In this document: positions 14,583 through 40,130 of the stretch, piece by piece | Numbering within the stretch: position 1 is the stretch's first letter | Layout: every line of letters starts with the position of its first letter | Assembly: GCA_020849275.1 (NCBI GenBank) | Contig: JADLGO010000052.1 | Span: 52,039-116,038, forward strand | From: Chthonomonadales bacterium | Lineage (GTDB): Bacteria > Armatimonadota > Chthonomonadetes > Chthonomonadales > CAJBBX01 | Reading direction: 5' to 3' | DNA length: 64,000 bases | Program-made: the position numbers and the translations under genes | The notes under the pieces: model-generated | What the model was told of the DNA's origin: nothing | The model's database searches: none | The model's input: the letters and a program-made list of their open reading frames with translations, nothing else

Positions 14583-14598
14583 GCTTCTCGCTCGCCTG

Positions 14599-17252: not shown

Positions 17253-17274
17253 GGGTGCCGGCGGGAGACGCTCC

Positions 17275-17678: not shown

Positions 17679-17713
17679 TGTCGGTGTTCGCAGCGCTTCG
17701 TGGAGACTGCCGT

Positions 17714-24075: not shown

Positions 24076-25599
24076 ATGCGGATATACGGCTCCTCGCCGC
24101 TGCACAAGTACGCGGAACTCATCTTTCGATGCAAGCGCATGTTCATCGTCGCCGTTATCCTCGGCACGCTGGCGACGAGCCTCGGCGTCTACATGCGACA
24201 GGACAAGTATTCGGCGTTCGTGGTGATCGCGCTGACGGGCGACACCGCGACCGGCGAGGCGATGTCGTCGACCGACGGCGGGCGCGACAGCAACCCGATC
24301 TACGCCGCGGCGCAGCGCAAAGCCGCCCGCCTCATCCAGTACTGGTTGCCCGTGGATCGCGACTTTACGGCCGACTCCATGAAGAACCTGGGTCTGGAGG
24401 CCAAGTACGGCGACAAGTTCGACGCGAAGGTGAGGGCCGTGCGTGATGAGCTCGCCAGCAGCGCCGCGCTCGTCACGCCGCAGCACCTCAAGCTCCAGCT
24501 CACGTGGGACGACCCCAAAGAGGCCGAGGCCATCCTGAACGAGGTCTACGGCGCCTTCTCCCGCAAGACGGTCGCCGAAGAGACGGCCGTTCAGACGAAC
24601 AAGAGGCAGGTGCTCGAGGAGCAGTTCAAGCTCTACAACAAGCGCGCGAACGAGCAGGCCACGCGTCGTGTCAAGTACCTCAAGGACCACTACTGGGAGA
24701 ACCCGGCGCTCCTGGGCCAGTCGCTCGGCTCTCTCGAGACCACCCAGCAGTCCATCGCGCAGGCGGAGACCACCCTCGCGGACGCCCGATCGCGCCAGCA
24801 GCGCATCGACCAGGAGCTGACCCGCGTGCCCGAATGGGTGACCGGCGCCGAGACGACGCGCACCATCACCGAGGACCCCTCGCTCCAACTGACCACCCAG
24901 CGCACCGACCTTCAGCGCCAACTCCAGCAGGCCAAGCAGCGCTACAACGACCTGCACCCGGTCGTGCAGGATCTGCAGAAGCAGATCATTGCAATCGACA
25001 AGCAGATCGCCGACGTGAGGAAGCAGCCGCGCGTGGCGACCAACGAGCAGAGCGAGGTGCAGAGGACGCGCAACCCGGTCTGGATCACGCTGAAGCAGTA
25101 CCAGGCTCAGCTCGGGATGATGATCCAGGGCTATGACCGGCGCATCGGGGAGCTTCGTGCCCAGCTCGCCCGCCTGGAGGGCCGGGTTCGGGCGATGCCT
25201 GGCGAGGAAGTGGCCTTCCAGAAGGTGGAGAAGGACTACGAGCTCGCCAACAATCTGCGTAACCAGGTGCGCGCCCGACTGGCCGCCGCGCAGTATGACG
25301 AGGAGCAGAGCAAGCTCACCCAGGCTCGCCTGGTCAAGCTCGAGTACGGCCCGATCTCCGAGAAGGTCGTCGCTGGCGGCAAACGCGTGCTGCTGCTGGC
25401 GCTCGGGCCCCTGCTCGGAATCCTGATCGCCTTTAGCTTCTCGCTCCTGGCCGAGAGCCTCGACCACACGCTGCGCACGCCGGTCGAGGTGGAGCGGTTC
25501 CTCGGCAAGCCCGTGCTCGCCGTCATTCCGCGCATGCGTACTCCGCGTGAAGGGCGCAAGCAGCTCGCGGGCGCAACGAAGCGCAGCATCTCGTCGTGA
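24076..25599 (+). CDS. polysaccharide co-polymerase / chain-length determinant (Wzz/GumC/EpsF-like, PCP-2b)
   Basis: N-terminal TM (MFIVAVILGTLATSLGVY), a long coiled-coil periplasmic region and a C-terminal TM (VLLLALGPLLGILIAFSFSLL). Followed by a separate BY-kinase gene. Confidence 0.85.
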   Translation: MRIYGSSPLHKYAELIFRCKRMFIVAVILGTLATSLGVYMRQDKYSAFVVIALTGDTATGEAMSSTDGGRDSNPIYAAAQRKAARLIQYWLPVDRDFTADSMKNLGLEAKYGDKFDAKVRAVRDELASSAALVTPQHLKLQLTWDDPKEAEAILNEVYGAFSRKTVAEETAVQTNKRQVLEEQFKLYNKRANEQATRRVKYLKDHYWENPALLGQSLGSLETTQQSIAQAETTLADARSRQQRIDQELTRVPEWVTGAETTRTITEDPSLQLTTQRTDLQRQLQQAKQRYNDLHPVVQDLQKQIIAIDKQIADVRKQPRVATNEQSEVQRTRNPVWITLKQYQAQLGMMIQGYDRRIGELRAQLARLEGRVRAMPGEEVAFQKVEKDYELANNLRNQVRARLAAAQYDEEQSKLTQARLVKLEYGPISEKVVAGGKRVLLLALGPLLGILIAFSFSLLAESLDHTLRTPVEVERFLGKPVLAVIPRMRTPREGRKQLAGATKRSISS

Positions 25600-25652: not shown

Positions 25653-26384
25653 ATGCCAGAGTCCACACGGTTCGACGACGCGCCCGCCGGCGGGCTGGTG
25701 CCGCTGAGCTCCTTCGAGTTCCGGCACGAGCCCTCGGGGGCTGGCGCCAACGGCGCGTCGCTGGTTCCAGAGGAGTACGCACGGCTCCACGCGGACATCG
25801 AGAGGGCGGCCAGCCCCTCCCGGTGCTTTGTCGTCGGCGTCACCTCCGCCGTCTACGGCGAGGGCAAGACCACGGTCGCGCTGAACCTGGCGGGGACCAT
25901 CGCGCAGAACTCGGAGGCGCGCGTCGCGCTCGTGGACTTTAACCTGCGCAACTGGGACATGCAGACCCGGCTGAACATCGCCTCCGCGCCTGGCCTGGTC
26001 GACGTCCTCGAGGGCTCCGAGGACGACCTGACCGCCATCGTGCAGCGGACGGAGCTAGACAACCTCACCATCATCCCGGCCGGGCGCGCGGCCGCGAACC
26101 CGTCGAGGCTGGTACGCTCCTCGCGGCTGGCGGAGGTCGTCAGCACTCTGCGCATGTCCAACGACTTCATTGTGCTGGATATGGCGCCCGTGCTGCCCGT
26201 GGCGGACACCAAGAGCCTGGCGAAGCACCTGGACGGCATCGTCATGGTGGTGCGTGCCGGCGTCACGCCGCGCGAGATCGTGGGCCGGGCCATCGACGCC
26301 GTGGGCAGCGATAAGGTGCTGGGGGTCGTTCTCAACGGCGTCGAGTCGGCGCTGCCGTCATGGCTCCACCGGTACTTCTCATAG
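25653..26384 (+). CDS. BY-kinase-type P-loop ATPase (CpsD/CapB/EpsG-like)
   Basis: Walker A GVTSAVYGEGKTT, Walker A' VALVDFNLR and Walker B FIVLDMAPV. GAAGGAG RBS. Confidence 0.85.
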   Translation: MPESTRFDDAPAGGLVPLSSFEFRHEPSGAGANGASLVPEEYARLHADIERAASPSRCFVVGVTSAVYGEGKTTVALNLAGTIAQNSEARVALVDFNLRNWDMQTRLNIASAPGLVDVLEGSEDDLTAIVQRTELDNLTIIPAGRAAANPSRLVRSSRLAEVVSTLRMSNDFIVLDMAPVLPVADTKSLAKHLDGIVMVVRAGVTPREIVGRAIDAVGSDKVLGVVLNGVESALPSWLHRYFS

Positions 26385-27628
26385 GTCTGTGGAGCGCGGC
26401 GCGCGTGGTCCTGCTCGTCGCCGTCGGCCTCGTCTGGGCCTACTGGTGCCTATGCGCGCTCTACCTTCTGGTGCTGGCCGTGGGCGCCGCGGTGTGCCGC
26501 AGGCGCCCACGGCGCTTGGTGGGGTCTGAGCGACGGTTCGCGCTGCTGGTGCCGGCCCACGACGAAGCCCTGCTGATCGGCGAGGTGGTTGAGGGCTTGC
26601 GCCGCCTCGACTACCCGGGCGATCTGCGAGCGGTCATCGTCATCGCCGACAACTGCTCGGACGCCACGGCGACCGCCGCGAGGGAACACGGCGCCGAGGT
26701 GCTCGAGCGCACCGACCCCGCCCGACGGGGTAAGGGGTTCGCCCTGGAGTGGGCGATCGGGCGGGTGCTGGCCGATGCGCGCCGCTTCGACGCGGTGGTC
26801 GTGCTGGACGCGGATTCCGAGTTGTCCGCCGGTTTCCTGCGAACGATGGACGCGGCGCTCACGGAGGGGCACGGCGCGGTTCAGGCGCGCTACGATGTGC
26901 TTAACGTGCACGAGAGTTGGCGCACGCGGCTGATGGCCTGTGCCCTGGCGCTGGCCCACCATGTGAAGCCGCTCGGCCGGCAGCGGCTGGGCCTGGCCGA
27001 TGGCCTCAAGGGCAATGGGATGTGCTTCGCGCGCGAGGTGCTCGAGCGCGTCCCGTGGTCTGGCGAGAGCGTCACCGAGGACATCGAGTACACGCTGCGC
27101 CTTGCGGAGGCCGGCATCCGGGTGGAATACGCGCCCGACGCCGAGGTGCGGGCACAGATGCCCACGACGGCCCGACAAGCGTCCACGCAACGACAGCGCT
27201 GGGAAGGCGGCCGCTACGCGCTGATGGGCCGGGCGGCGCGGCTCCTGGTACGCGGCGTGCGCGGGCGCGATGCCCTCTTGGCCGACCGTGCGGCCGACCT
27301 GCTGGTCCCGCCGTTCGCCGAGTTCCTGGCGGTGCCCTGCGCGCTGATCGTTCTCGGAGCGGCGCTCGCGTTGAGCGGCATCGATGCCTCCGGCGGGCGC
27401 GTGCTTGCGGCGGCGTGGGGCGCCGTTCTGGCGGCCGCCGTAATGTATCTGGTGGTCGGCCTCTTCGTGGCGCGCGTTCCCGCGGCCGTCGCATGGGCGC
27501 TGGCGGCGGCGCCCGTCTATGCGGTCTGGAAGCTTGCCACCTGCGCCGCGCTGCTGGCGCGCGGGGGGACGGGGGGGTGGCGCCGCACGGAGCGCCGCGC
27601 GTTTCGCGAGGGAGGGCCGGGCCGGTAA
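26360..27628 (+). CDS. membrane-embedded family-2 glycosyltransferase (synthase-like, D,D,D,QxxRW type)
   Basis: N-terminal TMs, LLVPAHDE, VLDADS, TEDIEY and QRQRWEGG (QxxRW), plus C-terminal TM helices. Confidence 0.85.
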   Translation: MAPPVLLIGLWSAARVVLLVAVGLVWAYWCLCALYLLVLAVGAAVCRRRPRRLVGSERRFALLVPAHDEALLIGEVVEGLRRLDYPGDLRAVIVIADNCSDATATAAREHGAEVLERTDPARRGKGFALEWAIGRVLADARRFDAVVVLDADSELSAGFLRTMDAALTEGHGAVQARYDVLNVHESWRTRLMACALALAHHVKPLGRQRLGLADGLKGNGMCFAREVLERVPWSGESVTEDIEYTLRLAEAGIRVEYAPDAEVRAQMPTTARQASTQRQRWEGGRYALMGRAARLLVRGVRGRDALLADRAADLLVPPFAEFLAVPCALIVLGAALALSGIDASGGRVLAAAWGAVLAAAVMYLVVGLFVARVPAAVAWALAAAPVYAVWKLATCAALLARGGTGGWRRTERRAFREGGPGR

Positions 27629-27658: not shown

Positions 27659-29104
27659 ATGGGCTCAACCGGTATGCGCGACACCATCGCAGTTATGGGC
27701 GTGCCGATCGACAACGTGGACATGGCCCTCGCGCTGGAGCGCATCGACGCTTTCGTGGCGGCGGGCGGCTTCCACCAGGTGGCGACGGTCAACACGGACT
27801 TCGTCGTGAAGGCGCTCCACGACGCCGAGCTGCGCATCATTCTGCGCCAGGCCGACCTGGTGCTGCCCGACGGCATGCCGATCGTGATGGCCTCGCGTTG
27901 GCTGCGGGCGCCGCTGCGCGAGCGCGTGACGGGTGCCGACCTGGTGCCGCTGCTGGCGGCCCGGGCCGCTCGCCGCGGGTACCGGCTGTTCATGCTCGGC
28001 GCGCGACCGGACGTCGCCGCGGCGGCGCGTGAGCGCATGGAACGCGAGAACCCGGGACTGCGCGTCGTTGGATGCATGTCGCCGCCCGTCGGCAGCGTCG
28101 TCACGATGGATAACCAGAGCATTCTGTCCCGGATCGACGAGGCGCGGCCGGACATACTTCTCGTGGCGTTTGGCAATCCCAAGCAGGAGAAGTGGATCCA
28201 CATGCACCGGGATCGCTTGCGCGTCCCCGTGTGCGTGGGGGTGGGGGGAACGTTCGACTTCATCGCCGGTGCAACGGCGCGAGCGCCAGGATGGATGCAG
28301 CGTTCCGGGCTGGAGTGGTTGTACCGGCTGGCCCAGGAGCCCCGGCGCCTGTGGCGGCGGTACGGCAGCGACTTGCTGTGGTTCGGCCGTTTCCTGGCCG
28401 CCCAGGTGCGCCACACGCGTTCCCGCGCAGGGGCAGCGTCCTGCGATCTCCGCGTGGCGGAGTGCGGCGGGGCCGTCGTCGCCTCCGGCGCCGGCGCCCT
28501 GGGGCGCTCGACGGTGCCGGCGCTCCACGCCGCCGCGGAGCGCGCCCGCGCGGCGGGAGGCCTTCTCGTCGTCGACCTTGCCGGCGTCTCGGCGGTCGAC
28601 AGTGCGGCCCTGGGTGCGCTGCTCGTGATGGCCGTGCGGGGCGGCGACGGGGGGCCCTCCGTGCGTCTTGCCGGCGCGGCTCCCGCCCTGCGGCGCTCGA
28701 TGGACGCTGCGCATGTGCTGGACGCGGTGCCCGCGTTCGCCACGGTGGATGAGGCGCTGGCCGCGCCCACGCCGCGGCTCGAGCCGCTCCGCGCCACCGC
28801 AAGCGCTGGATGCGCGGCCATCCGCGTTCAGGGGCCCGCCGACTGGCGCGTGGCCGAAGAACTGCGGCGCCAGTGCGCGGCGATGGGCGACGGCGTGCGC
28901 CAGGTACGGTTTGACCTGTCGGGGGCGAGCTACGTGGGCGTCGCGATGCTCGCCGCGCTCCACTCGGAGCGGGAACGCCTCGCCGCGCGCGGCGTGTCGG
29001 TCGAGGTTATCGAAGGGCCCGTGGTGCGGGCGGCGCTGGCCCGCGAGCGGCTGCCGGGGCTCTTCGGCGGCGGCCGTGCGGCGACGGGCGCCCCGTGCGC
29101 ATGA
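27659..29104 (+). CDS. WecG/TagA/CpsF-family (GT26) glycosyltransferase fused to two C-terminal STAS domains
   Basis: GT26 part: VNTDFVVKA, LVLPDGMPIV, AFGNPKQEKW and WLYRL. STAS-1 has VVDLAGVSAVDSAALGALL. STAS-2 has VRFDLSGASYVGVAMLAAL. Confidence 0.8.
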   Translation: MGSTGMRDTIAVMGVPIDNVDMALALERIDAFVAAGGFHQVATVNTDFVVKALHDAELRIILRQADLVLPDGMPIVMASRWLRAPLRERVTGADLVPLLAARAARRGYRLFMLGARPDVAAAARERMERENPGLRVVGCMSPPVGSVVTMDNQSILSRIDEARPDILLVAFGNPKQEKWIHMHRDRLRVPVCVGVGGTFDFIAGATARAPGWMQRSGLEWLYRLAQEPRRLWRRYGSDLLWFGRFLAAQVRHTRSRAGAASCDLRVAECGGAVVASGAGALGRSTVPALHAAAERARAAGGLLVVDLAGVSAVDSAALGALLVMAVRGGDGGPSVRLAGAAPALRRSMDAAHVLDAVPAFATVDEALAAPTPRLEPLRATASAGCAAIRVQGPADWRVAEELRRQCAAMGDGVRQVRFDLSGASYVGVAMLAALHSERERLAARGVSVEVIEGPVVRAALARERLPGLFGGGRAATGAPCA

Positions 29105-29123: not shown

Positions 29124-29258
29124 TTGCGGTTCGAGTTCCAGGTTCTGTTCATGCTGATCACCATCGGCCTACTCACGCGCAAGCTGTCGTGGCGTGGGTG
29201 GTTCTTCGTCGCGCTGTTTGTGCTGTCATGGATGATGTTCGACTGGATCAAGGGCTAG
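29124..29258 (+). CDS. unannotated 44-aa two-TM small membrane protein (candidate)
   Basis: TTG at 29124 lies 7 nt after a GGGGGGG run. The product is [44 protein letters not shown]. Third codon positions in this frame are almost all G/C, whereas the overlapping track frame (29189..) is T-rich at third positions until about 29260. Confidence 0.45.
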
Positions 29259-29293
29259 GCGCGGTGGGGGCTGAGCGCCACGCGGCGCGCGGC

Positions 29294-29914
29294 ATGGCTG
29301 CCGAGCGCGACGTGCTCGTGGTCGACGCGCTGGAGGCAGCGCCCGGGAACGCGCTGCTCGTGCGCGCGGCCTGGGCGCTGCGGCAGGACCTGATGGCGCT
29401 GCATCCGCGGCTTCGCCTCGCCAACGCGCTGCTGTTCTTCTGCCCGCACTATGCGCTGAACCGCGTGCGAACGGCCATCTACCGCGCCGTGGGGGCGCGC
29501 ATCGGAACCGGGAGCCTGATCCTGGGCAGCATTCACATGTGCGGGTTCGGGCGGTTCTGGGAGCGCCTGACGGTCGGTCAGTACTGCCTGGTGAACGCGC
29601 CGCTCTACCTGGACCTGAACGCTCCGATCACCGTGGAGGACTGGGTCGCCATCGGTGATCACGTGCGGCTGATCACCACCAGTCACGAGATGTCGTGCCC
29701 CGACAAGAGGTGCGGGGCGTTCCTGCCGGCGCCGATCGTGCTGGAGCGCGGCTGCTGGATCGGCTCCGGGGCAACGATCCTGCCGGGAGTGACCGTGGGG
29801 CGCGGGGCGGTGGTCGGAGCGGGCGCGGTCGTGACGCGCGATGTGCCGCCGCACACGCTGGTCGGCGGCGTGCCGGCGAAGGTCATCCGCGACCTTCCGG
29901 GGGCCTCGCCATGA
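29294..29914 (+). CDS. hexapeptide-repeat (left-handed beta-helix) O-acetyltransferase
   Basis: C-terminal [43 protein letters not shown]. The start is ambiguous (GTG 29264 or ATG 29294). The track start at 29189 is rejected on third-position composition. Confidence 0.78.
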
Positions 29915-31668
29915 GGCCGCCTCGCGGCTGGGATGCCGGTCGCCTGGCGGCGACGGCGCTGGGCATGGCGGCCGCCGCGCTCGTCCTGTGGAATGTTGGC
30001 GCCGGGCGCGCTCCCGCGCTCGCCGCCGGGCCGGACGACGAGGCTGCGCCCGCCAGCGGGATCGTGCGCATCGATGTTGACGTGAGCGCCGACCGGCGCC
30101 GGATCGACCCGGCCATCTACGGCATGGCCTTCGCGTCGGAGAGCCACCTTCGGGACCTGCGGCTCGGGTCCAACCGGTGGGGCGGTAACCCGAACACGCG
30201 CTACAACTGGGAGGGCAACTTCTGGAACAAGGCGCGCGACTGGAAGTTCTGGAACTACGCCGACGACGCGCCCGGCGACCGCACGCCGGCCATCGTGGCC
30301 GACCGTTTCGTCGCCGCCAACCGCGCGGCCGGCGTGCCCGTGGTGTTCACCATCCCCACGATCGGCTGGGTCGCGCGAAACGGTGACAACAGCACCTACT
30401 CTGTCGACGTGCCGCCCCGAGGCGGGCTCCCGGTGCGGCCGGGGAGCGAGGCGATTCGTGGCTATGACCCGGCCGCGAACCGCAAGCGCACCAGCGTACG
30501 CTCCTTCGCGCGCAAACGCGGCGCCTACGCCTTCCCACCCGACCTGGGCGATGGGGTGGTCTACCAGGACGAGTTCGTACACCACCTGGTGCGCAAGTTC
30601 GGCCACGCCTCGGAGGGCGGGGTCCGCTACTACGCGATGGACAACGAGCCGGACCTGTGGGCGGCAACGCACACCGACGTACATCCCGTAGCGCCGGGCT
30701 ACGACGAGCTCTTGTCGCGCTTCCTTGACTATGGGACGGCGGTCAAAGCCGTCGACCCGTCGGCGAGCATCACCGGACCGGTATCGTGGGGGTGGACGGG
30801 CTATGTGCACTCGCCGCGCGACGCGGTGGCCGGGAACTGGGGCGGCCGGCCGGATCGACGGGCGCACGGCGACATGGAGTTCGTTCCGTGGTTTCTGAGC
30901 CAGGTCAGACGCCACGATGCGCGCGCGGGACGGCGAACGCTCGACGTGCTGGACGTGCACTTCTATCCGCAGGCAGCGGGCGTGTTCCAGGGCGAGACGG
31001 ACGCGCTCACCAACGCATTGCGGCTTCGCAGCACGCGGGCGCTCTGGGACCCCGCCTACCGCGACGAGTCCTGGATCGGCGAGGCCGTCCGGCTCGTGCC
31101 GCGCCTTCGCGAATGGGCGCGCCGCCACTACCCGGGCACGAAGGTCGCGATCACGGAGTGGAACTGGGGCGCCGACGGCACTGTGAACGGCGGCCTGGCG
31201 GTAGCGGAGTGCCTGGGCATCTTCGGGCGCGAGGGGCTGGACCTGGCCAACTACTGGACCGTGCCCGCGGCGGGCTCGCCGGGCTACAATGCGTTCAAGC
31301 TCTACCGCAACCCGGACGGCCGGGGCCGTGGCTTCGGGGACGTGTCGGTGCGCGCTCGCAGTCAGGCGCCATCGGCGATCTCGTGCTTCGCGAGCATCGA
31401 CACGCGGACGGGCGACCTCGTCACGATGCTTCTGAACAAGCTGCCGGACCGGTCCCTGCGCGCGAGTATGGCTCTGCGTGCACTCTCCTGGAGGCCAGCG
31501 GAGACGACGGTGTGGCAGCTTGACGGCGCCGGCGCGCTGCGCGAGGGCTACGCGCCCATCGAGTCCGGAGGGCGCTACGAGATCGGGCTGGCGCCCAGCA
31601 CGGCGACGCTCGTTCGCTACGAGCGGCCGGCAGCCGGAAGCGCCCCTGAGCGAGGTGAGAAGCGATGA
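29911..31668 (+). CDS. secreted clan GH-A glycoside hydrolase, GH44-like endo-beta-1,4-glucanase
   Basis: Signal anchor ([16 protein letters not shown]), then [16 protein letters not shown], which I recall as a GH44 signature. Also AMDNEPDLW (acid/base NEP) and ITEWNWG (nucleophile). The ATG overlaps the upstream stop (ATGA). Confidence 0.72.
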
Positions 31669-33233
31669 CGGAGGCCTACGTTCCGAGCGTCGGCGATCTG
31701 CTCGCCGAGCAGCGGACCCGGTCGCGCGCGCTGATGACCTACCTGGTCGTCACGGTCGTGCTCGTTTTCGGGACGATGGGCGCGCTCACGTACCTGGCGC
31801 CGGTGACGCCGAACTACTCGGTCGGGCTCGTTGGCTTCAGCGTGTTCATATGCCTCGCGATCCCCGTCGCCGTGTGGAACAACCCCCGGATCGGTCTCTA
31901 CCTGATGGTGGTCGGCTCGCTGTTGCTCGGCGGCGGGTCATACATGGTGCGCGACACGATCCCGACGACGTACGTGCCCTTCTGGTGGAACATCAGCACC
32001 ATCTCGATGTTCTATGCCCGCAAGGACGCGCTCAAGGCGCTGGTGTTCAGTCCGGCCGAGGTGCTCATGGTGATCACCTTCCTGGCCTGGCTGATCCGTG
32101 GGATCGTGGCGCGCGAGTTGCGCTTCGAGAAGGGCGCGTTCCTGGGCTGGATCCTCGCCTACATTGGCATGGTCACGTTCGGCTTCATCTTCGGCATCAC
32201 CAAGGGCGGCGACACCACCATGGCGCTCTACGAGGTTCGTTCGCAGGCCCACTTCCTGCTGGGCTACATCATGGCGACGAACCTGATCCGCGAGCGCAAG
32301 CACGCCGTGCCGCTCGTCTGGCTCCTGGTGCTGTCGGCGGGACTGCTGGCCGTGTTCGGCACGCGCGCCTACTTTGTGCTTGGCAGCAAGATCACCGAGC
32401 AGGGCATCATGGGCCACGACGACAGCCTCGTGCTTAACCTGCTCCTCTTCGCGTTCTTCATCGCCGCCATCACGCGCGTGAACCGCCGGCTGACGATCTG
32501 GACCGCGGTCCTGCTCCCGTTTGCCGTGACGGCCGTGATGGCCAACCAGCGGCGCGCGGGCATCGCGGCCTTCATCGTGGCGTTCGTGCCGCTGCTGCCC
32601 ATCCTGTGGACGATGTTTCCCGATCGCCGCACCACCGTGATTCGATTCGCCGTCGTGTTCGCGCTCATCAACGCGGTCTATATGCCCGTCGCGTGGAACG
32701 CCAGCGGGCCATGGGCTCTTCCGGCGCGTTCCATCCGCTCCAATAGCGACCCCAACGCGCGCGATGCCAGCTCAAACTACTACCGGCTGGCCGAGAACAT
32801 CAACCTGAAGATGACGCGCGACACGAGCCCCTGGTACGGCATCGGATACGGGCGGCCGTTCGCCCAGTACTACGCCCTCGCAATGGTAACCACCGACTTC
32901 GTTCACTACATGCCCCACAACAGCATCCTGTGGGTCTGGATGCGCCTCGGGCACATCGGCTTCTTCTTCTTCCTGATGATGCTCGCGACGGTGCTCATAC
33001 GTGGTATGCACCGGCTGCGCGAGACGCGGGATCCGATGCTGCGCGTCGTCGGCATCCTGGCGGTCGTTGATATGCTGATGCTGTTCACCTTTGGCAAGTA
33101 CGATCTTCAGTTCTGCAACAGCAAGCAGATGTTCGTGGCGGCGGTGATGATCGGGGTGCTCGGCATCCTGCCGAAGCTGGACGCGCAAGCCGAAGATAAG
33201 GATCAGGCTCGGACCGCCGAGACTGCGGCGTGA
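31665..33233 (+). CDS. O-antigen ligase / Wzy-type polymerase family membrane protein
   Basis: About 12 TM helices and the Wzy_C-like motif MPHNSILWVWMRLGHIGFFFFL. ATGA overlap with the GH44-like gene. Confidence 0.75.
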   Translation: MTEAYVPSVGDLLAEQRTRSRALMTYLVVTVVLVFGTMGALTYLAPVTPNYSVGLVGFSVFICLAIPVAVWNNPRIGLYLMVVGSLLLGGGSYMVRDTIPTTYVPFWWNISTISMFYARKDALKALVFSPAEVLMVITFLAWLIRGIVARELRFEKGAFLGWILAYIGMVTFGFIFGITKGGDTTMALYEVRSQAHFLLGYIMATNLIRERKHAVPLVWLLVLSAGLLAVFGTRAYFVLGSKITEQGIMGHDDSLVLNLLLFAFFIAAITRVNRRLTIWTAVLLPFAVTAVMANQRRAGIAAFIVAFVPLLPILWTMFPDRRTTVIRFAVVFALINAVYMPVAWNASGPWALPARSIRSNSDPNARDASSNYYRLAENINLKMTRDTSPWYGIGYGRPFAQYYALAMVTTDFVHYMPHNSILWVWMRLGHIGFFFFLMMLATVLIRGMHRLRETRDPMLRVVGILAVVDMLMLFTFGKYDLQFCNSKQMFVAAVMIGVLGILPKLDAQAEDKDQARTAETAA

Positions 33234-33252: not shown

Positions 33253-34260
33253 GTGAGCGAACGCACGAAGATATCGGTCGTGGTGTGCACGCGCGATCGG
33301 CACGACACGGTCGGACAGGCACTCGAGAGCATCCTCGACTGCGCCTACTCCCCATTCGACCTGCATGTGATGGACCAGAGCGTGGCCGACGACACGCGGG
33401 GCATCGTGGAGAGCATGGCCGCAAGCCCCGTGGCCTCCGGCCGGCTCTTCTACCATCACCTGGACAGAGCCGGCCTCTCGCGCGCCTACAACGCCGGCTT
33501 TGCCGCGACGGGCGGGGCCATCGTCGCGATGACCGACGACGACGTAGTGGTCCCGGCAGACTGGCTCTCGCGCATCGCGGAGGCGTTCGCGGGCGACGCG
33601 GGCGCCGGCCTGCTCTACGGGCAGGTGCTCATTCCCGAGAGCCTGAACGACGCGCATACCCGCGGCCTGATCGTGCCAGCGCTCCCGATACCGCGCCGCG
33701 AGCGGCTGTGTCGCGGGCAGGGGTTCAGGGTGTTCGGCATGGGGGCCAACATGGCCCTGCGTCGGGCCCTGCTCGACGACGTGTGGGGTTTCGACGAGGC
33801 GCTCGGCGGCGGGGGGCCGCTGCGATCATCGCAGGACTTTGATCTGGCCTATCGCGCCTACCGTGCCGGCTGGGCCATTCTGCTGGCGCCGGAGGTGCGC
33901 GTGGACCACTACGGCACGCGCACGCTGGAGCAGTGGCCGGGCACCATGCGCAACTACGGGATCGGCGACGGGGCCTTCTACTCCAAGCACGTACGCTGCG
34001 GCGACGGCTTCGCGCTCTGGCTGCTGCTGCGGCAACTCGCGCGCGCGGCCGGGCGCGAGGCGCGGAGCCTGCTGCGCCGCGGGCGGCTCGAGCCTGATCT
34101 GTACGGGCGCAGCGTGCTGGTGGGCATCGGCGAGGCCCGCCGCTTCGCCATTGATCGTCGGTATAGGCTGTACCGGGAGACGGCGAGCGGTCGCATGGAG
34201 GTGACCCAGGCCAATGCAGTGACCGGCGCGCGGCGCGGGACGTCGGGCGGGGGCGGGTAG
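33253..34260 (+). CDS. family-2 glycosyltransferase
   Basis: ISVVVCTRDR, MDQSVADDT and MTDDDVVV (DxD) motifs. GTG start with GGAG upstream. Confidence 0.85.
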   Translation: MSERTKISVVVCTRDRHDTVGQALESILDCAYSPFDLHVMDQSVADDTRGIVESMAASPVASGRLFYHHLDRAGLSRAYNAGFAATGGAIVAMTDDDVVVPADWLSRIAEAFAGDAGAGLLYGQVLIPESLNDAHTRGLIVPALPIPRRERLCRGQGFRVFGMGANMALRRALLDDVWGFDEALGGGGPLRSSQDFDLAYRAYRAGWAILLAPEVRVDHYGTRTLEQWPGTMRNYGIGDGAFYSKHVRCGDGFALWLLLRQLARAAGREARSLLRRGRLEPDLYGRSVLVGIGEARRFAIDRRYRLYRETASGRMEVTQANAVTGARRGTSGGGG

Positions 34261-34264
34261 CGCG

Positions 34265-35236
34265 ATGCCGCACATGAGCGTGGTGGTGCCGACCTACAAC
34301 CGGCAGGCGAGCCTGATCCGCACGCTGGAGGCCCTGGCCCGCCAGTCGCTTCCGACGCACCGCTTCGAGGTGGTGGTGGTGTCCGACGGCGCGACGGACG
34401 GCACGGCCGCGGCCGTGCGCTCGTTCGCGCCGCCCTACCGCCTGCGGCTCCTCGATCAGGCCAACGCCGGGCCCTCCGCCGCGCGCAACAATGGCGCTCG
34501 GGCGGCGTGCGGCGAGGTGCTCGTCTACCTCGACGATGATGTGGAGCCCGGCTCCGGGTGTCTGGCGGAGCACGAGCGGGCGCACGGCGAGGACCCGATG
34601 CTCGTCCTGATCGGGCCGCAGTCCATGCCGAGCCGCGAGCGGTTCGCGGTGTGGGTGGCATGGGAGCACCGGATGCTTGAGCAGCAGTACGCGCGCTTCG
34701 CCTCCGGCGAATGGCAGGCCGGCCCGAACAACCTCTACAGTGGTAACTTCTCCGTGCGGCGCGACCACTTGCTGGAGGCCGGCGGGTTCGACGAGCGCTT
34801 CAAGCGGCAAGAGGACGTGGAGCTCGGCTACCGCCTGGCCCGGCTCGGCGTGCGCTTCCGATTCGAGCCGCGCGCGGCCGCGCTCCATCGCCCGGCGCGC
34901 ACCTACGAGTCCTGGTATGCCACGCCCTATCTCTACGGCGTGCGCGATGTTCAGATGGCGCGTGACAAGCACCAGGAATCGGTGATGGAGCTCGTGCGCA
35001 AGCACTACCGCGAGCGCAGCGCACTCACGAGAGCTTTCGCTCGGGCCGTGGTCGGCCGCCGTTGGGCCGAGGCGGCGACGCTCGCCCTGTTGAAGCCGGC
35101 TCCCATTGCCCTCGACCGCGCGGGCCTGCGCGCCCCCGCGCTCCAGGCGCTGAGCGTCCTCTTCAACCTGCGCTACCTGCAGGGCATGGCCGCCGAGATC
35201 GGCGGCGGAGCGAAGCTCTGGCGGGCGCTGCGATGA
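34265..35236 (+). CDS. family-2 glycosyltransferase
   Basis: MSVVVPTYNR, VVVSDGATDGT and YLDDDVEP motifs. Confidence 0.85.
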   Translation: MPHMSVVVPTYNRQASLIRTLEALARQSLPTHRFEVVVVSDGATDGTAAAVRSFAPPYRLRLLDQANAGPSAARNNGARAACGEVLVYLDDDVEPGSGCLAEHERAHGEDPMLVLIGPQSMPSRERFAVWVAWEHRMLEQQYARFASGEWQAGPNNLYSGNFSVRRDHLLEAGGFDERFKRQEDVELGYRLARLGVRFRFEPRAAALHRPARTYESWYATPYLYGVRDVQMARDKHQESVMELVRKHYRERSALTRAFARAVVGRRWAEAATLALLKPAPIALDRAGLRAPALQALSVLFNLRYLQGMAAEIGGGAKLWRALR

Positions 35237-36339
35237 AGGCCGCCTGTCGCGCCGGCTTCGTGATGGAGCAGACCCTCGGCCACGTGACTCACGACCGCAA
35301 CCTGCGCCAGCACGCCGCGTTGGACCCGCTCCTCGCCCCCGAGTGGTTACCCGTGGAGTACGGCGCGCGGGACGCCTGGCAGCGCGCCCCGGTTGTCCGC
35401 TCCAACTGGACCTTGCGCGCCAGCCTGCGGGCGCGCGACGCCCTGCGCGGGCTGTTTCGCGCAGGCCAGCCCGACGTGCTCTTCATGCACACGCAGGTGA
35501 CCGCCCTCCTGGCTCCGCCGTTCATGCGGCGCGTGCCCACGGTCGTCTCCCTCGATGCCACGCCGCTCAACGTCGACACGCTTGGCGCGGCCTACGACCA
35601 CCGCCCGAGCCGCGTGGTGCCCGTCGAGCGCTGGAAGAACCGCCTCACGCGTCGCACGTTCGGCGCGGCCGCGCACCTCGTCTCGTGGAGCCACTGGGCG
35701 AAACGTTCCCTCGTGGCCGACTACGCCATCCCCGAGGATCGCGTCACGGTCATACCGCCAGGCGTGGACATGGATCGCTGGCGCTGCGTACGAGAGGAAG
35801 CGGCCGGCGGTCGCCCCGTTCGACTGCTCTTCGTCGGCGGGAACTTTCGGCGCAAGGGGGGAGCCGTTTTACTCGACGCCTTCCGCGCACGGCTCGCTGC
35901 GCACTGCACGCTCGACATCGTGACGCGCGAGCCGGTAGACGCGGCCGGTGTGCCCGGGGTCTGCGTGCATCGCGGCCTGAGCTCGAACGACCCGGCGCTG
36001 CTGGCGCTCTACCGGCACGCGGACGCGTTTGTCTTTCCCACGCTCGGCGACTGCCTGCCCATCGCCGTGATGGAGGCGATGGCGGCGAGCCTGCCCGTCG
36101 TCGCCACGACGGTGGGTGCGCTCGAGGAGGCCGTAGTGGACGGGGAGACCGGGTTTCTGCTGCCGCCGGGCGACGGCCAGGGGCTGGCCGAGGCCGTCGA
36201 GCGTCTGGTAGCCAGCCCGCGCCTCCGGCTGACGATGGGCCAGGCGGGCCGGCTGCGGGCCGAGGGGCGATTCGACGCCGCGCGCAACTACGGCGCGCTC
36301 ATAGCGCTCTGCAAGGATGTCGCGCATGGACGCGCCTAG
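35233..36339 (+). CDS. family-4 (GT-B) glycosyltransferase
   Basis: LLFVGGNFRRKGG and FVFPTLGDCLPIAVMEAMAASLPVVAT...ETGFLLPPGD (ExxxxxxE motif). Start trimmed to the ATG at 35233, overlapping the upstream stop. Confidence 0.85.
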   Translation: MKAACRAGFVMEQTLGHVTHDRNLRQHAALDPLLAPEWLPVEYGARDAWQRAPVVRSNWTLRASLRARDALRGLFRAGQPDVLFMHTQVTALLAPPFMRRVPTVVSLDATPLNVDTLGAAYDHRPSRVVPVERWKNRLTRRTFGAAAHLVSWSHWAKRSLVADYAIPEDRVTVIPPGVDMDRWRCVREEAAGGRPVRLLFVGGNFRRKGGAVLLDAFRARLAAHCTLDIVTREPVDAAGVPGVCVHRGLSSNDPALLALYRHADAFVFPTLGDCLPIAVMEAMAASLPVVATTVGALEEAVVDGETGFLLPPGDGQGLAEAVERLVASPRLRLTMGQAGRLRAEGRFDAARNYGALIALCKDVAHGRA

Positions 36340-37435
36340 CCCCGCGGCGACGGCGCCCACGGCCGACCAGGGCGGTCGCTGCCCGCGCGTGTTGCTGCTT
36401 GTGCCGAGCGTTGCCAAGACGGGGATCGAGCAAGACGTGGCCGGCGATCGACATCCAACGATGGATTACCATGCGTTGGCCGCGGCGCTTGGCGGTGACA
36501 TCGCCGACTATCGGGCCGTACTGGACGACAGGAGTCCCGTCGTCGCGGCGGCGCGCCGCGCCAGTCTGGACCTGGGACTTGCCGCGCTGGCGTTCCGGGC
36601 CCGACGCCGGTACGACGTGATATACTCCAACGGCGAGAACGTCAGCATTCCGCTGGCGGCGCTCTTCCGAATGGGGGGGCGCAGACCGGGCCACATCTTG
36701 ATCGGCCACCGCCTATCGGCGCGCAAAAAAAGGGCGCTCCTGCGGGTGCTGCGCAGCCAGATGGATGCCGTGCTCGTCTACTCGGGGACGCAGTACCAGT
36801 ACGCCCTGAACGTCCTGGGCTTGCCACGCGCCAAGCTCCATCAGATCCCGTTCCATGCCGACCACCGGTTCTTTCGGCCGATCCCGGCGCACGTCGAGAA
36901 CATGATCTGCAGCGCCGGGCTGGAGTGGCGTGACTACCCGACGCTCATTGGGGCCGTGGCGGGCCTGGATGTGCGCGTGTGCCTCGCGGCGGCGAGCCCC
37001 TGGTCCCGGCATCGTGATGAGACGGGCAGGGTGTCTCTGCCGACGAACGTGGAGGTTCGGCGCTACGGGTACGCAGAGTTGCGCGACCTCTACGCGCGGG
37101 CGCGGCTCGTCGTGGTGCCGCTCCTCGAGACCGACTTTCAGGCGGGCATCACGACCCTTCTGGAGTCGATGGCGATGGGCAAGGCCGTGATCGTGACACG
37201 GATCACGGGGCAGCGCGACGTGGTCGTCGATGGGCAGAACGGGCTCTACGTGCCGCCGGGCGACGTGCCCGCGTTGCGGGGGGCCATCGAGCGTCTCCTG
37301 GCCGATCGCGGCGAGGCCGCGCGCCTCGGCGCCGCCGCCCGGAGCGCCGTGGAGCAACGCATGACGCTGGAGCACTGGGTGGAGCGCATCGCGAGCGTGG
37401 CGCGCGCGCTGGGCGCCGCCACACCGCACCGATAG
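36317..37435 (+). CDS. GT-B fold glycosyltransferase (GT4-like)
   Basis: VVPLLETDFQAGITTLLESMAMGKAVIVTR...QNGLYVPPGD. Overlaps the previous gene by 23 nt. Confidence 0.75.
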   Translation: MSRMDAPSPAATAPTADQGGRCPRVLLLVPSVAKTGIEQDVAGDRHPTMDYHALAAALGGDIADYRAVLDDRSPVVAAARRASLDLGLAALAFRARRRYDVIYSNGENVSIPLAALFRMGGRRPGHILIGHRLSARKKRALLRVLRSQMDAVLVYSGTQYQYALNVLGLPRAKLHQIPFHADHRFFRPIPAHVENMICSAGLEWRDYPTLIGAVAGLDVRVCLAAASPWSRHRDETGRVSLPTNVEVRRYGYAELRDLYARARLVVVPLLETDFQAGITTLLESMAMGKAVIVTRITGQRDVVVDGQNGLYVPPGDVPALRGAIERLLADRGEAARLGAAARSAVEQRMTLEHWVERIASVARALGAATPHR

Positions 37436-38483: not shown

Positions 38484-40130
38484 ATGGATATCACGCAGGA
38501 TGGCTCGCGAGCTCAGGAGCGCTCCGGCGCCACCGCAACGTGGGTGCTGCTGGCGGTGGCGGCCGGTCTGACCATCTACCTGTACCTTCGCGCCATCAAC
38601 TGGTGGTACTTCGAGTGGACGGTGAACGGCAGCTACTATGCCCACGGCGTGTTCATCCCGTTCTTCGTCGCCGCGATGATCTGGCGCGATCGGGAGCGCC
38701 TGCGACGTCTCCCGGTACAGGTCTCATGGTGGGGCGCGGTGCCGCTCGCGCTGGCGGTGGCGCTCGTGATGTACGCCTACCGCGCCGACGTCACCGTGAC
38801 GCTGTCGGTCTCCTTTATGCTCTTCCTGATCGGCGCCACGCTGCTGCTCGCCGGCAAGCGCATCACGCGAGCCCTCCTGTTCCCGATCCTGTTCCTGCTG
38901 ACGATGATCCCGATCGTGCCGAACCAGGTTATCAGCCAGCTCGCCTTCCCGATCCAGCTTGTCTCGGCCAAGCTGGCGGCGTCGTTGCTGAACCTGATGA
39001 CCTTCCATGCCACGCGAATCGGCACCGAGATCCGGATGGACAACTACACGCTGAACGTGGAGGTCCCTTGCAGCGGGTTCAAGACACTGATCGGCCTCCT
39101 CTCGTTCGCCGGAGCGTTCGCCTACCTCACGGAGGCCGCCCCGTGGAAACGGTGGGTCCTCTTCCTGATGGCGGCGCCCCTCTCCATCCTGGTGAACGGC
39201 GTGCGCATCGCGCTGATCGGCCTGGCGGGGGAGCTCTACGGGGCGCCGGCCGCCCAGACGTTCCACGACTGGAGCGGCTTCATCGTGCTGATCATCGGCT
39301 TCATGGTCCTGTTCAGCACGGCGCGACTGCTCAAGTGCGACAACTTCTACGGCATCCCGCTTCAGGATCCGCCGCCGTCGTCGGATGGCGCTCGGCCCGA
39401 GCCCCCGCCGAAGCCGACCGCCGCCGAGCTCGACGCGCGCTATGGGCCGGCGCAGCCAAACGCGATGCGCCGGCTCGCCGTGGGCGCCTACCCGGTGGTG
39501 GCCGTTCTGGCCATCGCGGGCGTCGCGCGCGGCTACGTGCAGCCCCCGAAGGCCGACCCATCTCTCATCCTCAGACCGGCGGAGATACCGGTGCGGATGG
39601 GTGGCTGGCAGCGGCTCGGCGAGGACACGCCGATCACTGAGCAGGTGAAGTCGGTCCTGGAGCCCGACACCTATCTGGACCGAAACTACGTGTCCGACCG
39701 GCTCGGTGGGCGCGTCGTGAACCTGTTCATGACGGGCGGCAACAGCCGTCGCACGTTCCATGACCCGCACGATTGCTTCATGGGCAGCGGCTACGACCTT
39801 GCCGACCGCGGCCTCAAGCGCATCGACACGCCGGCCGGTCCGGTCTACCTCCAGGAGTCGGTGGCCACCAACCCCGTCGACCACGTCCAGCAGCTGATCA
39901 TGTTCGCCTACATCGTCGACGGGCGCATGATGCAGTCGATGGCGGCAGTGCACGGCGCGATACTGCGCCAGACGCTGCTCGGCTCGTCGTCGGGGCGTCC
40001 GTTCTACTTCGTGCGCTTCCGGCACCTGGGCAGCGGCGCCGGCGACGACCGCCGTAAGGAACTGGTCGATTTCGTCCGGAGCGCCTGGCCGACGCTGGCC
40101 CCGCGGGTTCTGGCTGTCCCTGTGAAGTAG
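38484..40130 (+). CDS. exosortase (EpsH/Xrt family) fused to a C-terminal EpsI-family domain
   Basis: Polytopic N-terminal half carries the exosortase catalytic-type motifs LNVEVPCSGFKTL (Cys), ILVNGVRIALIG (Arg) and FHDWSGF (His). After one more TM, a ~200-aa soluble EpsI-like domain follows. AGGAG RBS before the ATG at 38484. Confidence 0.85.
   Translation: MDITQDGSRAQERSGATATWVLLAVAAGLTIYLYLRAINWWYFEWTVNGSYYAHGVFIPFFVAAMIWRDRERLRRLPVQVSWWGAVPLALAVALVMYAYRADVTVTLSVSFMLFLIGATLLLAGKRITRALLFPILFLLTMIPIVPNQVISQLAFPIQLVSAKLAASLLNLMTFHATRIGTEIRMDNYTLNVEVPCSGFKTLIGLLSFAGAFAYLTEAAPWKRWVLFLMAAPLSILVNGVRIALIGLAGELYGAPAAQTFHDWSGFIVLIIGFMVLFSTARLLKCDNFYGIPLQDPPPSSDGARPEPPPKPTAAELDARYGPAQPNAMRRLAVGAYPVVAVLAIAGVARGYVQPPKADPSLILRPAEIPVRMGGWQRLGEDTPITEQVKSVLEPDTYLDRNYVSDRLGGRVVNLFMTGGNSRRTFHDPHDCFMGSGYDLADRGLKRIDTPAGPVYLQESVATNPVDHVQQLIMFAYIVDGRMMQSMAAVHGAILRQTLLGSSSGRPFYFVRFRHLGSGAGDDRRKELVDFVRSAWPTLAPRVLAVPVK

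Follow-up and report, generated by a model that had tools for sequence, protein, structure and literature searches.

The gene at 27659..29104 (+) of the 64-kb stretch of Chthonomonadales (Armatimonadota) DNA analysed here (the window) encodes a glycosyltransferase of family GT26 fused to two C-terminal STAS domains, and it represents a real, widespread, and unstudied family of GT26-STAS proteins in Armatimonadota and Chloroflexota. Judged from its sequence, the GT26 part has intact catalytic residues and is predicted to transfer to a polyprenyl-diphosphate-linked acceptor. The gene sits in an exosortase-linked exopolysaccharide (EPS) cluster. The working model that we consider most likely is a phospho-switch built into the GT26 enzyme and acting through Ser315 of the first STAS domain, and we give this model an even chance of being correct.

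Architecture and gene context of the fusion protein

The fusion ORF begins with ATG, specifies 481 amino acids in the order GT26, STAS1, and STAS2, and has a GC3 of 0.88, the norm for coding frames in this window of 70% GC. Alternative starts are present at 27674 (M6, the first residue of the homologs) and at 27695 (M13, from one gene caller), and the true start may be 27674 because the homologs begin at M6-R7 of the query. The GT26 (WecG/TagA/CpsF, GT-E fold) catalytic domain occupies aa 6–258 (27674..28432, +) according to Pfam, NCBIfam, Foldseek, and the alignment with TagA. Pfam Glyco_tran_WecG (PF03808) matches aa 65–235 (E = 5.9e-66; 221.8 bits vs. a cut-off of 27.4), and the NCBIfam GT26 models span aa 9–258 (TIGR00696, 162.5 bits vs. 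69). The C-terminal appendage of this domain (helices of aa 211–254; 28289..28420, +) carries R223 and R230 and continues without a break into STAS1, a SpoIIAA/RsbV-like domain of aa 263–368 (28445..28762, +) that was recognized by Pfam, phmmer against the PDB, AlphaFold2, and Foldseek. A degenerate STAS2 follows at aa 377–462 (28787..29044, +). When scanned alone, STAS1 scored 42.9 bits with STAS_2 (PF13466) and 38.1 bits with STAS (PF01740), both above the Pfam gathering scores, and STAS2 scored 32.5 (cut-off, 29.2) and 27.4 bits (cut-off, 22.6), respectively. PF02397 (Bac_transf) was not detected in the query by the Pfam scan.

The AlphaFold2 model (mean pLDDT, 93.8; pTM, 0.92) forms one body that includes two beta-alpha STAS folds at aa 263–368 and 377–462. 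In Foldseek searches, the GT26 part matched TagA/TarA (7mpk and 5wb4) with a TM-score normalized to target length (TMt) of 0.95, an rmsd of 1.4, and 38% identity, and the STAS part matched TM1442, SpoIIAA, and RsbV at a TMt of ~0.8; SLC26 STAS domains were also returned. The reading given in the earlier note, i.e. a complete GT26 domain of ~250 aa followed by two STAS modules in the same ORF, is thus upheld by Pfam (including both C-terminal modules), NCBIfam, AlphaFold2, and Foldseek.

Residues T37, N39, D65, R83, and Q167 of TagA correspond to T43, N45, D71, R89, and Q176 of the query, all of which are invariant in the GT26-STAS family, and R214 and R221 of TagA correspond to R223 and R230. 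The counterparts of these seven residues are invariant or nearly so among 76 homologs, with D71, T43, R223, and R230 each conserved in 90% or more of them. In TagA, for which residue roles have been described, the C-terminal appendage is needed for both catalysis and membrane binding, and control is exerted via the appendage by conversion from an inactive dimer to a membrane-bound monomer (PMC6493773). The query scores below the cut-offs of all three equivalog models concerned (TarA, WecG, and EpsA), and far below in the case of TarA (136.6 bits vs. 350).

The genes located upstream on the same strand encode a PCP-like chain-length determinant of 507 aa (24076..25599; best model pepcterm_ChnLen, under its cut-off), a BY-kinase-type P-loop protein (AAA_31; 25653..26384), which passes TIGR01007 eps_fam (110 vs. 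108.05), and, directly upstream, an EpsU-like membrane GT2 (Glyco_tranf_2_3/Glyco_trans_2_3; 26360..27628). Directly downstream of the fusion gene, a conserved small hydrophobic ORF (29151..29258, +; 35 aa from ATG, possibly ~44 aa) is followed by genes for a hexapeptide acetyltransferase (WcaF/EpsC-like; 29264..29914, +), a GH44 glycoside hydrolase (EpsB-like; 29911..31668, +), and a Wzy_C polymerase/ligase-like membrane protein (31665..33233, +). The PCP-like, AAA_31, GT2, acetyltransferase, GH44, and Wzy_C genes belong to a core cassette that is conserved in distant Armatimonadota relatives, where the first three stay beside the fusion gene. Further downstream are four more glycosyltransferase genes (GT2, GT2, GT4, and GT4-like; 33253..37435, +), a Rotamase_2 gene (37487–38407) preceding the exosortase gene, the gene for an EpsH exosortase carrying a fused EpsI domain (38484..40130, +; 8TM_EpsH, 130.3 bits vs. 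a cut-off of 105.55), and that for a Poly_export/SLBB (Wza-type) outer-membrane export protein (40406..41800, −). The window also contains a putative regulator set of the PEP-CTERM kind (13368..20299), consisting of a sigma-54 response regulator (13368–14783, −), a GAF-PAS histidine kinase (14599–17151, −), and a PrsT-like TPR protein (17528–20299, +). The XrtA-system equivalogs pepcterm_ChnLen, pepcterm_TyrKin, PrsT, PEP_resp_reg, and XrtA all score under their cut-offs in the window. Neither a priming PHPT gene (no PF02397) nor a WecA-type gene was detected in the 64 kb by Pfam scans, and thus the GT26 step would be the first cluster-encoded lipid-linked step. The cluster in the window shows no Wzx gene.

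Distribution of the family and conservation of Ser315

Both PF03808 and STAS were found in all of the 120 best database matches of the query, which come from many sources, and the identical protein was found on 20 independent contigs from several runs. In genome loci of two phyla, the homologous genes are uninterrupted ORFs of 477–532 aa, and the AlphaFold2 model is confident over the domain junctions. A frameshift, which the earlier note had considered, or an assembly artefact that merged separate GT26 and STAS genes is therefore ruled out for practical purposes. The GT26 domain shows a mean identity of 61% to the query across the family. The STAS domains are only 25–28% identical to those of the query, yet STAS is always retained; STAS2 is poorly conserved and is missing from ~20% of the family members. 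One relative (P0067) combines GT26, STAS, STAS, and Bac_transf domains in a single protein.

When only the STAS region was searched against 1.84 billion representatives, 231 weak matches were obtained, mostly standalone STAS proteins of 100–140 aa, and STAS1 was nearest to standalone proteins of the anti-sigma-antagonist type (33–47% identity). The few tandem matches that were checked by Pfam are either partial sequences of GT26-STAS proteins or short proteins with tandem STAS domains, and no new architecture partner emerged from this search except for one RR-SpoIIE-STAS fusion. Our literature search found no paper on a GT26-STAS fusion, and the earlier note knew of no characterized one. A STAS-fused polysaccharide enzyme, All4160, has now been characterized, but it belongs to the PHPT class rather than to GT26.

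The phmmer search against the PDB aligned the segment VVDLAGVSAVDSAALG of the query with VLDLSSVSYMDSAGLG in TM1442, an anti-sigma antagonist, so that D314-S315 (28598..28603, +; S315 at 28601–28603) falls on a D-S pair, which we take to be the position of D57-S58 in SpoIIAA. In the AlphaFold2 model, S315, the candidate phospho-acceptor, is the first residue of the helix at 315–328 (alpha2), which follows the strand at 302–313, and it caps this helix as in STAS domains of the SpoIIAA type. STAS2 has G427-V428 (28937–28942) at the equivalent place. These data agree with the former proposal that STAS1 keeps the serine phosphorylated in SpoIIAA/RsbV and that STAS2 lacks it.

When the clades were separated using the GT26 domain sequence alone, a serine occupied the STAS1 site in all 33 members of the query's clade vs. 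none of the 65 members of the sister clade, in which Gly (32 members) and Ala (23 members) are found. The sister (DG/DA) clade was placed in Armatimonadota by two loci (L010 and L014) and by FlhA encoded on the same 4.86-Mb contig. Ser315 is among just five invariant STAS1 positions in the query's clade, where the mean STAS1 identity is 44%. This clean split appears only by GT26-based clade; the pooled alignment contains Gly, Ser, and Ala in 43, 42, and 26 sequences, respectively, and a phosphorylatable serine as a family-wide feature was rejected on this ground. D-[S/T] is missing from both STAS domains in 42 of 121 members. Compensation between the STAS1 and STAS2 sites was not supported, as neither site is present in 27 members vs. 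~30 by chance.

Because Gly and Ala are tolerated in the sister clade, the fold does not require a serine at the STAS1 site. The alpha2 motif LGTLLNLPKRA is kept whether or not the serine is present and therefore points to a binding surface that is independent of phosphorylation; the query deviates from this motif (LGALLVMAVRGG). The STAS of the query does not reach the cut-off of the NCBIfam model ant_ant_sig (TIGR00377; 41.9 bits vs. 53.45), and a profile built from the partner-switching STAS proteins of Chloroflexota did not pick up its STAS region.

Partner genes and possible modes of STAS action

In all seven Chloroflexota loci that reach downstream, a HATPase_c_2 (RsbW-type) kinase and a standalone STAS protein are encoded just downstream of the fusion gene on the same strand. 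A GAF-SpoIIE phosphatase is also encoded in five of them (L016, L018, L019, L021, and L030; the other two are L022 and L031), and a receiver domain protein in most. The fused STAS domains in these loci resemble the adjoining standalone STAS proteins at E values of 1e-22 to 1e-35. The AAA_31/PCP pair was not seen beside the Chloroflexota fusion genes and is therefore not a universal partner. Consistent with the earlier statement that the window encodes no Ser kinase/phosphatase pair, a HATPase_c_2 kinase, a SpoIIE/PP2C phosphatase, and a standalone STAS were all looked for in the 64 kb, and none was found. This search employed Pfam scans of every GC3-supported ORF and of the doubtful ORFs lying in unannotated gaps, HMMs built from the Pfam-confirmed Chloroflexota proteins, and, for leads only, phmmer with RsbW and SpoIIAB sequences. 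No relevant gene was present in the ~3.5 kb past the right end of the window, and the Armatimonadota loci examined contained no kinase, phosphatase, or standalone STAS within ±10 kb of the gene.

In the model that we prefer, the fusion gene would encode an EpsA-like GT26, i.e. a peripheral-membrane transferase that acts at an early stage of repeat-unit assembly by adding a sugar to an acceptor carried on undecaprenyl diphosphate, with the degenerate STAS2 probably serving as an accessory domain after STAS1. An RsbW-type Ser kinase encoded elsewhere in the genome would phosphorylate Ser315 at the start of alpha2 of STAS1, and a SpoIIE/PP2C phosphatase, likewise encoded elsewhere, would remove the phosphate. 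Phosphorylation may change either the grip of STAS on the appendage or the target to which STAS binds, and the outcome would be gating of the first cluster-specific lipid-linked step. The parts of this model that we infer are the phosphorylation of Ser315 in the query organism, its action via the appendage, and whether it turns the enzyme on or off. By analogy with TagA, which needs its appendage, the attachment of the STAS tandem to this element could provide a concrete route by which phosphorylation or binding gates a GT-E enzyme. The gating of repeat-unit synthesis proposed in the earlier note finds support in the partner genes of Chloroflexota, in the presence of Ser315 throughout the query's clade, and in the precedent of All4160; it is weakened by the lack of partner genes in the window and in the Armatimonadota loci, by the Gly/Ala residues of the sister clade, and by the great divergence of the query STAS. 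Candidates for the kinase, the phosphatase, and a competing standalone STAS are provided by the Chloroflexota operons, which opens the hypothesis to direct testing in vitro.

STAS domains are known to act as phosphorylation-free modules that bind ATPases or anchor transporters, as in MlaB and SLC26/SulP, and a serious possibility, although one that we hold tentatively, is that the STAS tandem works without phosphorylation as a fixed docking or allosteric element and that Ser315 is a clade-specific structural residue. The tandem could tether the peripheral, otherwise soluble GT26 to the membrane GT2, to the PCP/BY-kinase pair, or to Wzy, or it could set the oligomeric state. Although nothing at the canonical position can be phosphorylated in the sister clade and in approximately one-third of the family, both the fusion and the alpha2 motif persist there, and the single rigid body in the model suggests that STAS may be permanently packed on the enzyme. 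The linkage to PCP-like, AAA_31, and GT2 genes in distant Armatimonadota, with no kinase or phosphatase nearby, points in the same direction, and a weak match to mlaB_1 and the SLC26 STAS fold matches are consistent with it. However, a purely structural role does not readily fit with the complete conservation of Ser315 in the query's clade, given that STAS1 is otherwise largely variable there and that Gly or Ala is tolerated elsewhere in the family. In addition, the fusion genes of Chloroflexota lie among partner-switching genes, with no AAA_31/PCP pair seen beside them.

Some STAS domains are reported to bind nucleotides or sit on anion transporters, and the earlier note had accordingly offered nucleotide or anion sensing as an alternative. 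Such sensing of a small ligand (nucleotide, nucleotide-sugar, or anion) to tune the transferase would be compatible with the SLC26 STAS domains among the fold-search matches, but we consider it improbable: no ligand-binding motif was identified, STAS1 is nearest to anti-sigma-antagonist-type proteins, the best structural matches are TM1442, SpoIIAA, and RsbV, and the low identity among the STAS domains fits poorly with a conserved ligand pocket. The idea thus gained no support.

Returning to the phospho-switch, a broader interpretation, which is attractive but doubtful, is that GT26-STAS represents a second, independent case of partner-switching control built into a polysaccharide enzyme, exerted via the catalytic and membrane-binding appendage of a GT26 instead of on a PHPT, and that the switch has been rewired repeatedly within the family. 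The complete kinase/phosphatase set in the Chloroflexota operons, the invariant STAS1 serine with unlinked partners in the query's Armatimonadota clade, and the sister clade's loss of this serine or its relocation to STAS2 would then represent different states. If this is true, the family would offer a natural series with a phospho-switch at one end and a STAS clamp independent of phosphorylation at the other.

Comparison with known systems

Bacterial EPS output has been studied mostly as a matter of transcription, c-di-GMP, and tyrosine kinases. It was not until 2026 that a partner-switching module was shown to switch a biosynthetic enzyme directly; the enzyme was a single priming transferase of cyanobacteria, and this mode of control was called lineage-specific (PMC13555669). 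The GT26-STAS family suggests the same logic on a different enzyme class in two other phyla, and the GT26 reaction, as the step after priming, is a natural commitment point.

TagA/TarA, the GT26 ManNAc transferase of the wall teichoic acid linkage unit, resembles the window protein in fold, catalytic residues, and the essential C-terminal appendage (PDB 5wb4, 5wfg, 7mpk, and 7n41). In contrast, TagA stops after the appendage and has no STAS, and it works in Gram-positive teichoic acid synthesis.

On sequence comparison, the core of the cluster resembles epsU/epsA/epsC/epsB of Myxococcus xanthus, whose EPS genes include epsA (GT26), epsB (GH44), epsC (acetyltransferase), and epsU (GT2) (PMC7484181). 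The best NCBIfam models of the cassette genes are EpsA, EpsB, EpsC, EpsU, and Wzy_EPS, and both clusters have the GT26, acetyltransferase, and GH44 genes side by side. Every score falls far short of its equivalog cut-off (EpsA, 182.6/500; EpsB, 389/1250; EpsC, 52.6/150; EpsU, 325/700; and Wzy_EPS, 62/670), and the EpsA equivalog (NF041872) is only the best-scoring named model for the fusion protein. This model (265 positions) matches aa 9–258 only and therefore leaves out the STAS domains. The cluster in the window also differs from that of M. xanthus in being exosortase-linked and in showing no PHPT or Wzx gene.

Classical partner-switching relies on a standalone STAS protein and has a sigma factor as its output, whereas in the window protein the STAS domains are built into the enzyme, which would itself be the output. 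The window protein shares the STAS fold and the D-S site with the SpoIIAA/SpoIIAB/SpoIIE and RsbV/RsbW/RsbU modules, and its Chloroflexota relatives adjoin STAS, SpoIIE, and HATPase_c_2 genes, whereas the window itself contains no kinase, phosphatase, or sigma factor partner. In Vibrio fischeri, the STAS protein SypA of the SypA/SypE system is reported to control a polysaccharide locus via an unknown target (PMC4517449).

Another close parallel is All4160 (STAS plus Bac_transf) of Anabaena sp. PCC 7120, in which phosphorylation of Ser74 of STAS inactivates the protein and a SpoIIE-like phosphatase reactivates it, as established in vitro and genetically in 2026 (PMC13555669). The partners are the kinase Alr3423 and the phosphatase HenR, whose genes were not reported to adjoin all4160; XssP and All2285 are related proteins, and the combination of STAS with a sugar transferase was called mostly cyanobacterial (PMC13555669). 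Both All4160 and the window protein carry a SpoIIAA-type STAS on an early lipid-linked EPS enzyme, with a serine after a conserved Asp, and All4160 indicates that the kinase and phosphatase need not adjoin; P0067 unites GT26, STAS, and Bac_transf. All4160 is a priming phosphoglycosyl transferase (PF02397) with a single N-terminal STAS, whereas the window protein is a GT26 with two C-terminal STAS domains, from a family that is distributed in Armatimonadota and Chloroflexota rather than mostly in cyanobacteria.

Domain organization and distribution of the GT26-STAS protein

The ORF at 27659–29104 (+) encodes 481 aa from an ATG start, and its third-position GC (0.88) matches that of the other genes in this window of 70% GC. 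Pfam identified Glyco_tran_WecG at aa 65–235 (E = 5.9e-66) and matched STAS and STAS_2 in two stretches each, and NCBIfam models of GT26 enzymes span aa 9–258. When scanned alone, the first (STAS1; 42.9 and 38.1 bits) and second (STAS2; 32.5 and 27.4 bits) STAS domains scored above the Pfam gathering scores. The AlphaFold2 model (76 homologs; mean pLDDT 93.8, pTM 0.92) consists of the GT26 domain, a long helix (228–254), and strand-helix STAS folds at 263–368 and 377–462. In Foldseek searches, it matched TagA/TarA with a TM-score normalized to target length (TMt) of 0.95 and 38% identity, and also TM1442, SpoIIAA, and RsbV (TMt of about 0.8). The description in the earlier note of a GT26 domain followed by two STAS domains was correct in all its statements, but the true start may be at 27674 because family homologs begin at M6–R7.

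A sequencing frameshift joining two genes had been named as an alternative origin of the fusion. Twenty contigs, drawn from more than one sequencing run, encode the identical protein, and PF03808 and STAS occur together in 120 of the 120 best matches among 5.8 billion proteins, by which an assembly or frameshift artefact is ruled out for all practical purposes.

The family comprises proteins with two STAS domains (about 460–525 aa), proteins with a single STAS domain (about 360–407 aa), and rare longer forms. One of these, P0067 (706 aa; 10001–12121 of locus L029), contains GT26 (aa 60–231), STAS (two stretches, starting at aa 261), and a full-length Bac_transf domain (aa 513–700), and can be regarded as a Rosetta-stone fusion linking this family to the STAS-priming transferase architecture of Anabaena. 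Mean identity to the query is 61% in the GT26 domain, compared with 28% in STAS1 and 25% in STAS2; the STAS modules have thus been kept while drifting fast. The fusion occurs in species-representative genomes of Armatimonadota (Armatimonas and Chthonomonadales) and Chloroflexota (Anaerolineales, Roseiflexaceae, and Chloroflexales). Databases list proteins of the family as WecB/TagA/CpsF family glycosyltransferase or ManNAc transferase. A close homolog in Armatimonas sp. (P0020, locus L026; 47% identity, D-S retained) lies outside any EPS cassette, standing alone with four sulfatase genes and one BNR/sialidase-like gene around it.

The enzyme part belongs to GT26, every testable feature of which is present, and scores below the cut-offs of the TarA, WecG, and EpsA equivalog models. 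Residues T37, N39, D65 (the likely catalytic base; PMC6493773), R83, and Q167 of Thermoanaerobacter italicus TagA (7mpk) align with T43, N45, D71, R89, and Q176 of the query, and R214 and R221 with R223 and R230; each of these equivalents is either invariant across the family or conserved at 90% or more. TagA needs its C-terminal appendage for catalysis and membrane binding, and it switches between a soluble dimer, which is inactive, and a membrane-bound monomer, which is active (PMC6493773). In the query model, the C-terminal appendage forms helices 211–254 and runs straight into STAS1, and the high pTM suggests that the three domains are packed as one body. In such an arrangement, any control exerted by the STAS domains would most obviously work through the appendage.

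Genetic context in the window

The EPS cluster (13368–41800) encodes polymerase-like Wzy_C, PCP, and BY-kinase-type proteins, an exporter, and seven glycosyltransferases. Within it, the GT26-STAS-STAS gene belongs to a run of genes on one strand. Ahead of it are, in order, genes for a PCP-like protein, an AAA_31 BY-kinase-type protein, and a membrane GT2; after it come a small hydrophobic ORF and then genes for a hexapeptide acetyltransferase, a GH44 hydrolase, Wzy_C, four further glycosyltransferases, a Rotamase_2 protein, and an exosortase-EpsI fusion. A Wza-type exporter gene lies past the end of this run, and genes for a sigma-54 response regulator, a GAF-PAS histidine kinase, and a TPR protein lie 5' of it. 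The block from the PCP-like to the Wzy_C gene is kept in relatives down to 44% identity. The best named NCBIfam models for the cassette genes are those of the Myxococcus xanthus EPS pathway (EpsU, EpsA, EpsC, EpsB, and Wzy_EPS; genes described in PMC7484181), with all scores far under the equivalog cut-offs. Neither a Bac_transf (PF02397) priming transferase nor a Wzx-type flippase was found in the 64-kb window, and Pfam scans detected no WecA-type enzyme there. Given this lack of a priming transferase, we infer that GT26 would carry out the earliest lipid-linked reaction for which the cluster holds a gene. Either the priming enzyme and flippase are encoded elsewhere, or the membrane GT2/GH44 pair hints at a partly synthase-like route.

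Directly 3' of the query gene is a mini-ORF of about 35–44 aa (29151–29258, +, possibly from near 29124), whose conserved part reaches 5' of the ATG. It has no Pfam match and shows the pattern hydrophobic helix, [RK][RK]xxW[RK]xGW, second hydrophobic helix, NWK. Counterparts occur in relatives at 11521–11655 (locus L025) and near 11567 (L027), 11160 (L028), 9678 (L007), 4333 (L010), and 3354 (L011); that of L029 (17162–17296) is 3' of a GT2 gene rather than a GT26-STAS gene. The product probably belongs to the EPS machinery as a two-helix membrane peptide.

An ORF missed by the GC3 filter (12271 to about 13290, −), which directly follows the sigma-54 regulator gene, encodes a receiver fused to PilZ, of the c-di-GMP receptor type, and the gene at 55334–57412 (−) combines a GGDEF (diguanylate cyclase) domain with HD/HD_5 (HD-GYP-like); the two proteins suggest c-di-GMP input near the EPS cluster. 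The region 46000–50400 has a GC content of 0.64–0.65 (about 0.70 elsewhere), contains an HNH endonuclease gene (46205–46762, −), after which come genes for an ABC transporter pair and a protein with weak TPR similarity, and may be an acquired segment. Genes for HypF, HypB-like, and HypA proteins, a NiFe hydrogenase large subunit, and NuoF/NuoE/NuoG-like diaphorase subunits, with a malic enzyme-PTA fusion among them, occupy 3–10878 (−) and suggest a bidirectional NAD-linked [NiFe] hydrogenase.

STAS sites and partner-switching genes

In a phmmer search of PDB sequences, query VVDLAGVSAVDSAALG aligned with VLDLSSVSYMDSAGLG of TM1442, which places D314-S315 at the canonical D-S position; in the AlphaFold2 model, S315 opens the helix that follows. 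STAS2 carries G427-V428 at this site, in agreement with the earlier observation that the Ser is kept in STAS1 and absent from STAS2. When 121 sequences were clustered on the GT26 domain alone, D-S occupied the STAS1 site in 33 of 33 members of the query's clade, whereas the sister clade (n = 65) had D-G (32), D-A (23), or D-T (3) and never D-S. Within the query's clade, STAS1 averages 44% identity, with only G279, D314, S315, G319, and R327 invariant. Since other family members tolerate Gly or Ala here, the fold does not need Ser, and the strict retention of Ser315 points to a function. Complementation between the STAS1 and STAS2 sites did not exceed chance among family members. The query falls below the ant_ant_sig cut-off (NCBIfam) and yields no match to a profile of Chloroflexota partner-switching STAS domains. 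STAS2, degenerate in the query, at 29% pairwise identity in its clade and missing from some members, looks accessory. At the column of V428 (nt 28940–28942), 33 of the 99 two-STAS members have Ser, 25 have Cys (D-C or E-C), and 20 have Thr; D-C is the commonest state in the query's clade.

Chloroflexota members have the canonical F-[IL]-D-S-[AS]-G motif in both STAS domains, and their loci have the order priming transferase (a separate Bac_transf gene directly upstream of the fusion gene), GT26-STAS-STAS, NTP-transferase/Bac_transf, standalone STAS, GAF-SpoIIE phosphatase, HATPase_c_2 (RsbW-type) kinase, and receiver (precomputed Pfam calls for L030 and L031; Pfam scans for L016, L019, L021, and L022; local HMM for L018). 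The kinase and standalone STAS genes are present in all seven loci that reach far enough downstream, the phosphatase gene in five of these, and the fused and standalone STAS domains match each other at E = 1e-22 to 1e-35. In the Armatimonadota loci examined, no gene for HATPase_c_2, SpoIIE/PP2C, or standalone STAS was found within 10 kb on either side, and there was none in the 64-kb window or just past its right end, which confirms the earlier statement that the window encodes no Ser kinase/phosphatase pair. Among the weak matches to STAS1 was P0238 (604 aa), a receiver-SpoIIE-STAS chain in which a phosphatase is fused to its presumptive substrate domain.

Possible mode of regulation and comparison with known systems

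The input read by the STAS tandem is much less certain than its role as a regulatory or assembly module in an EpsA-like GT26 enzyme that is otherwise intact. The gating by phosphorylation proposed earlier retains the support of Ser315, of the kinase linkage in Chloroflexota, and of the Anabaena precedent, but lacks nearby partner genes in the Armatimonadota loci examined and a Ser conserved family-wide. A Ser315 phospho-switch that would be run by unlinked partners and act on the GT26 appendage is, in our judgement, about evenly balanced between right and wrong. A somewhat less probable reading takes the STAS module as a docking or allosteric element independent of phosphorylation: the alpha2 motif LGTLLNLPKRA, which the two Armatimonadota clades share whether or not the Ser is present (the query, with LGALLVMAVRGG, being the outlier of its clade), suggests a binding surface of this kind, and 42 of the 121 family members bear D-[S/T] at neither STAS site, but the invariance of Ser315 in the query's clade argues against it. 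Sensing of a ligand by the STAS domains is improbable.

The literature searched contained no paper describing a fusion of GT26 with STAS, in line with the earlier note, which was aware of no characterised example, and the architecture is not startling. In the 2026 precedent, Anabaena All4160, an N-terminal STAS domain is joined to Bac_transf and Ser74 is phosphorylated by Alr3423 (PMC13555669); phosphorylated All4160 is inactive and requires the SpoIIE-like phosphatase HenR, and S74A bypasses henR (PMC13555669). By analogy, the query would work most like All4160, but it stands outside that group because its catalytic domain, domain order, and domain number all differ. STAS1 shares the fold and site of anti-sigma antagonists but remains below their curated score, and no neighbouring partner genes were found in its lineage. 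The Chloroflexota operons offer a ready-made test system for GT26-STAS switching, and the family would carry the recently described principle of STAS regulation over to a further class of enzymes and to additional phyla.
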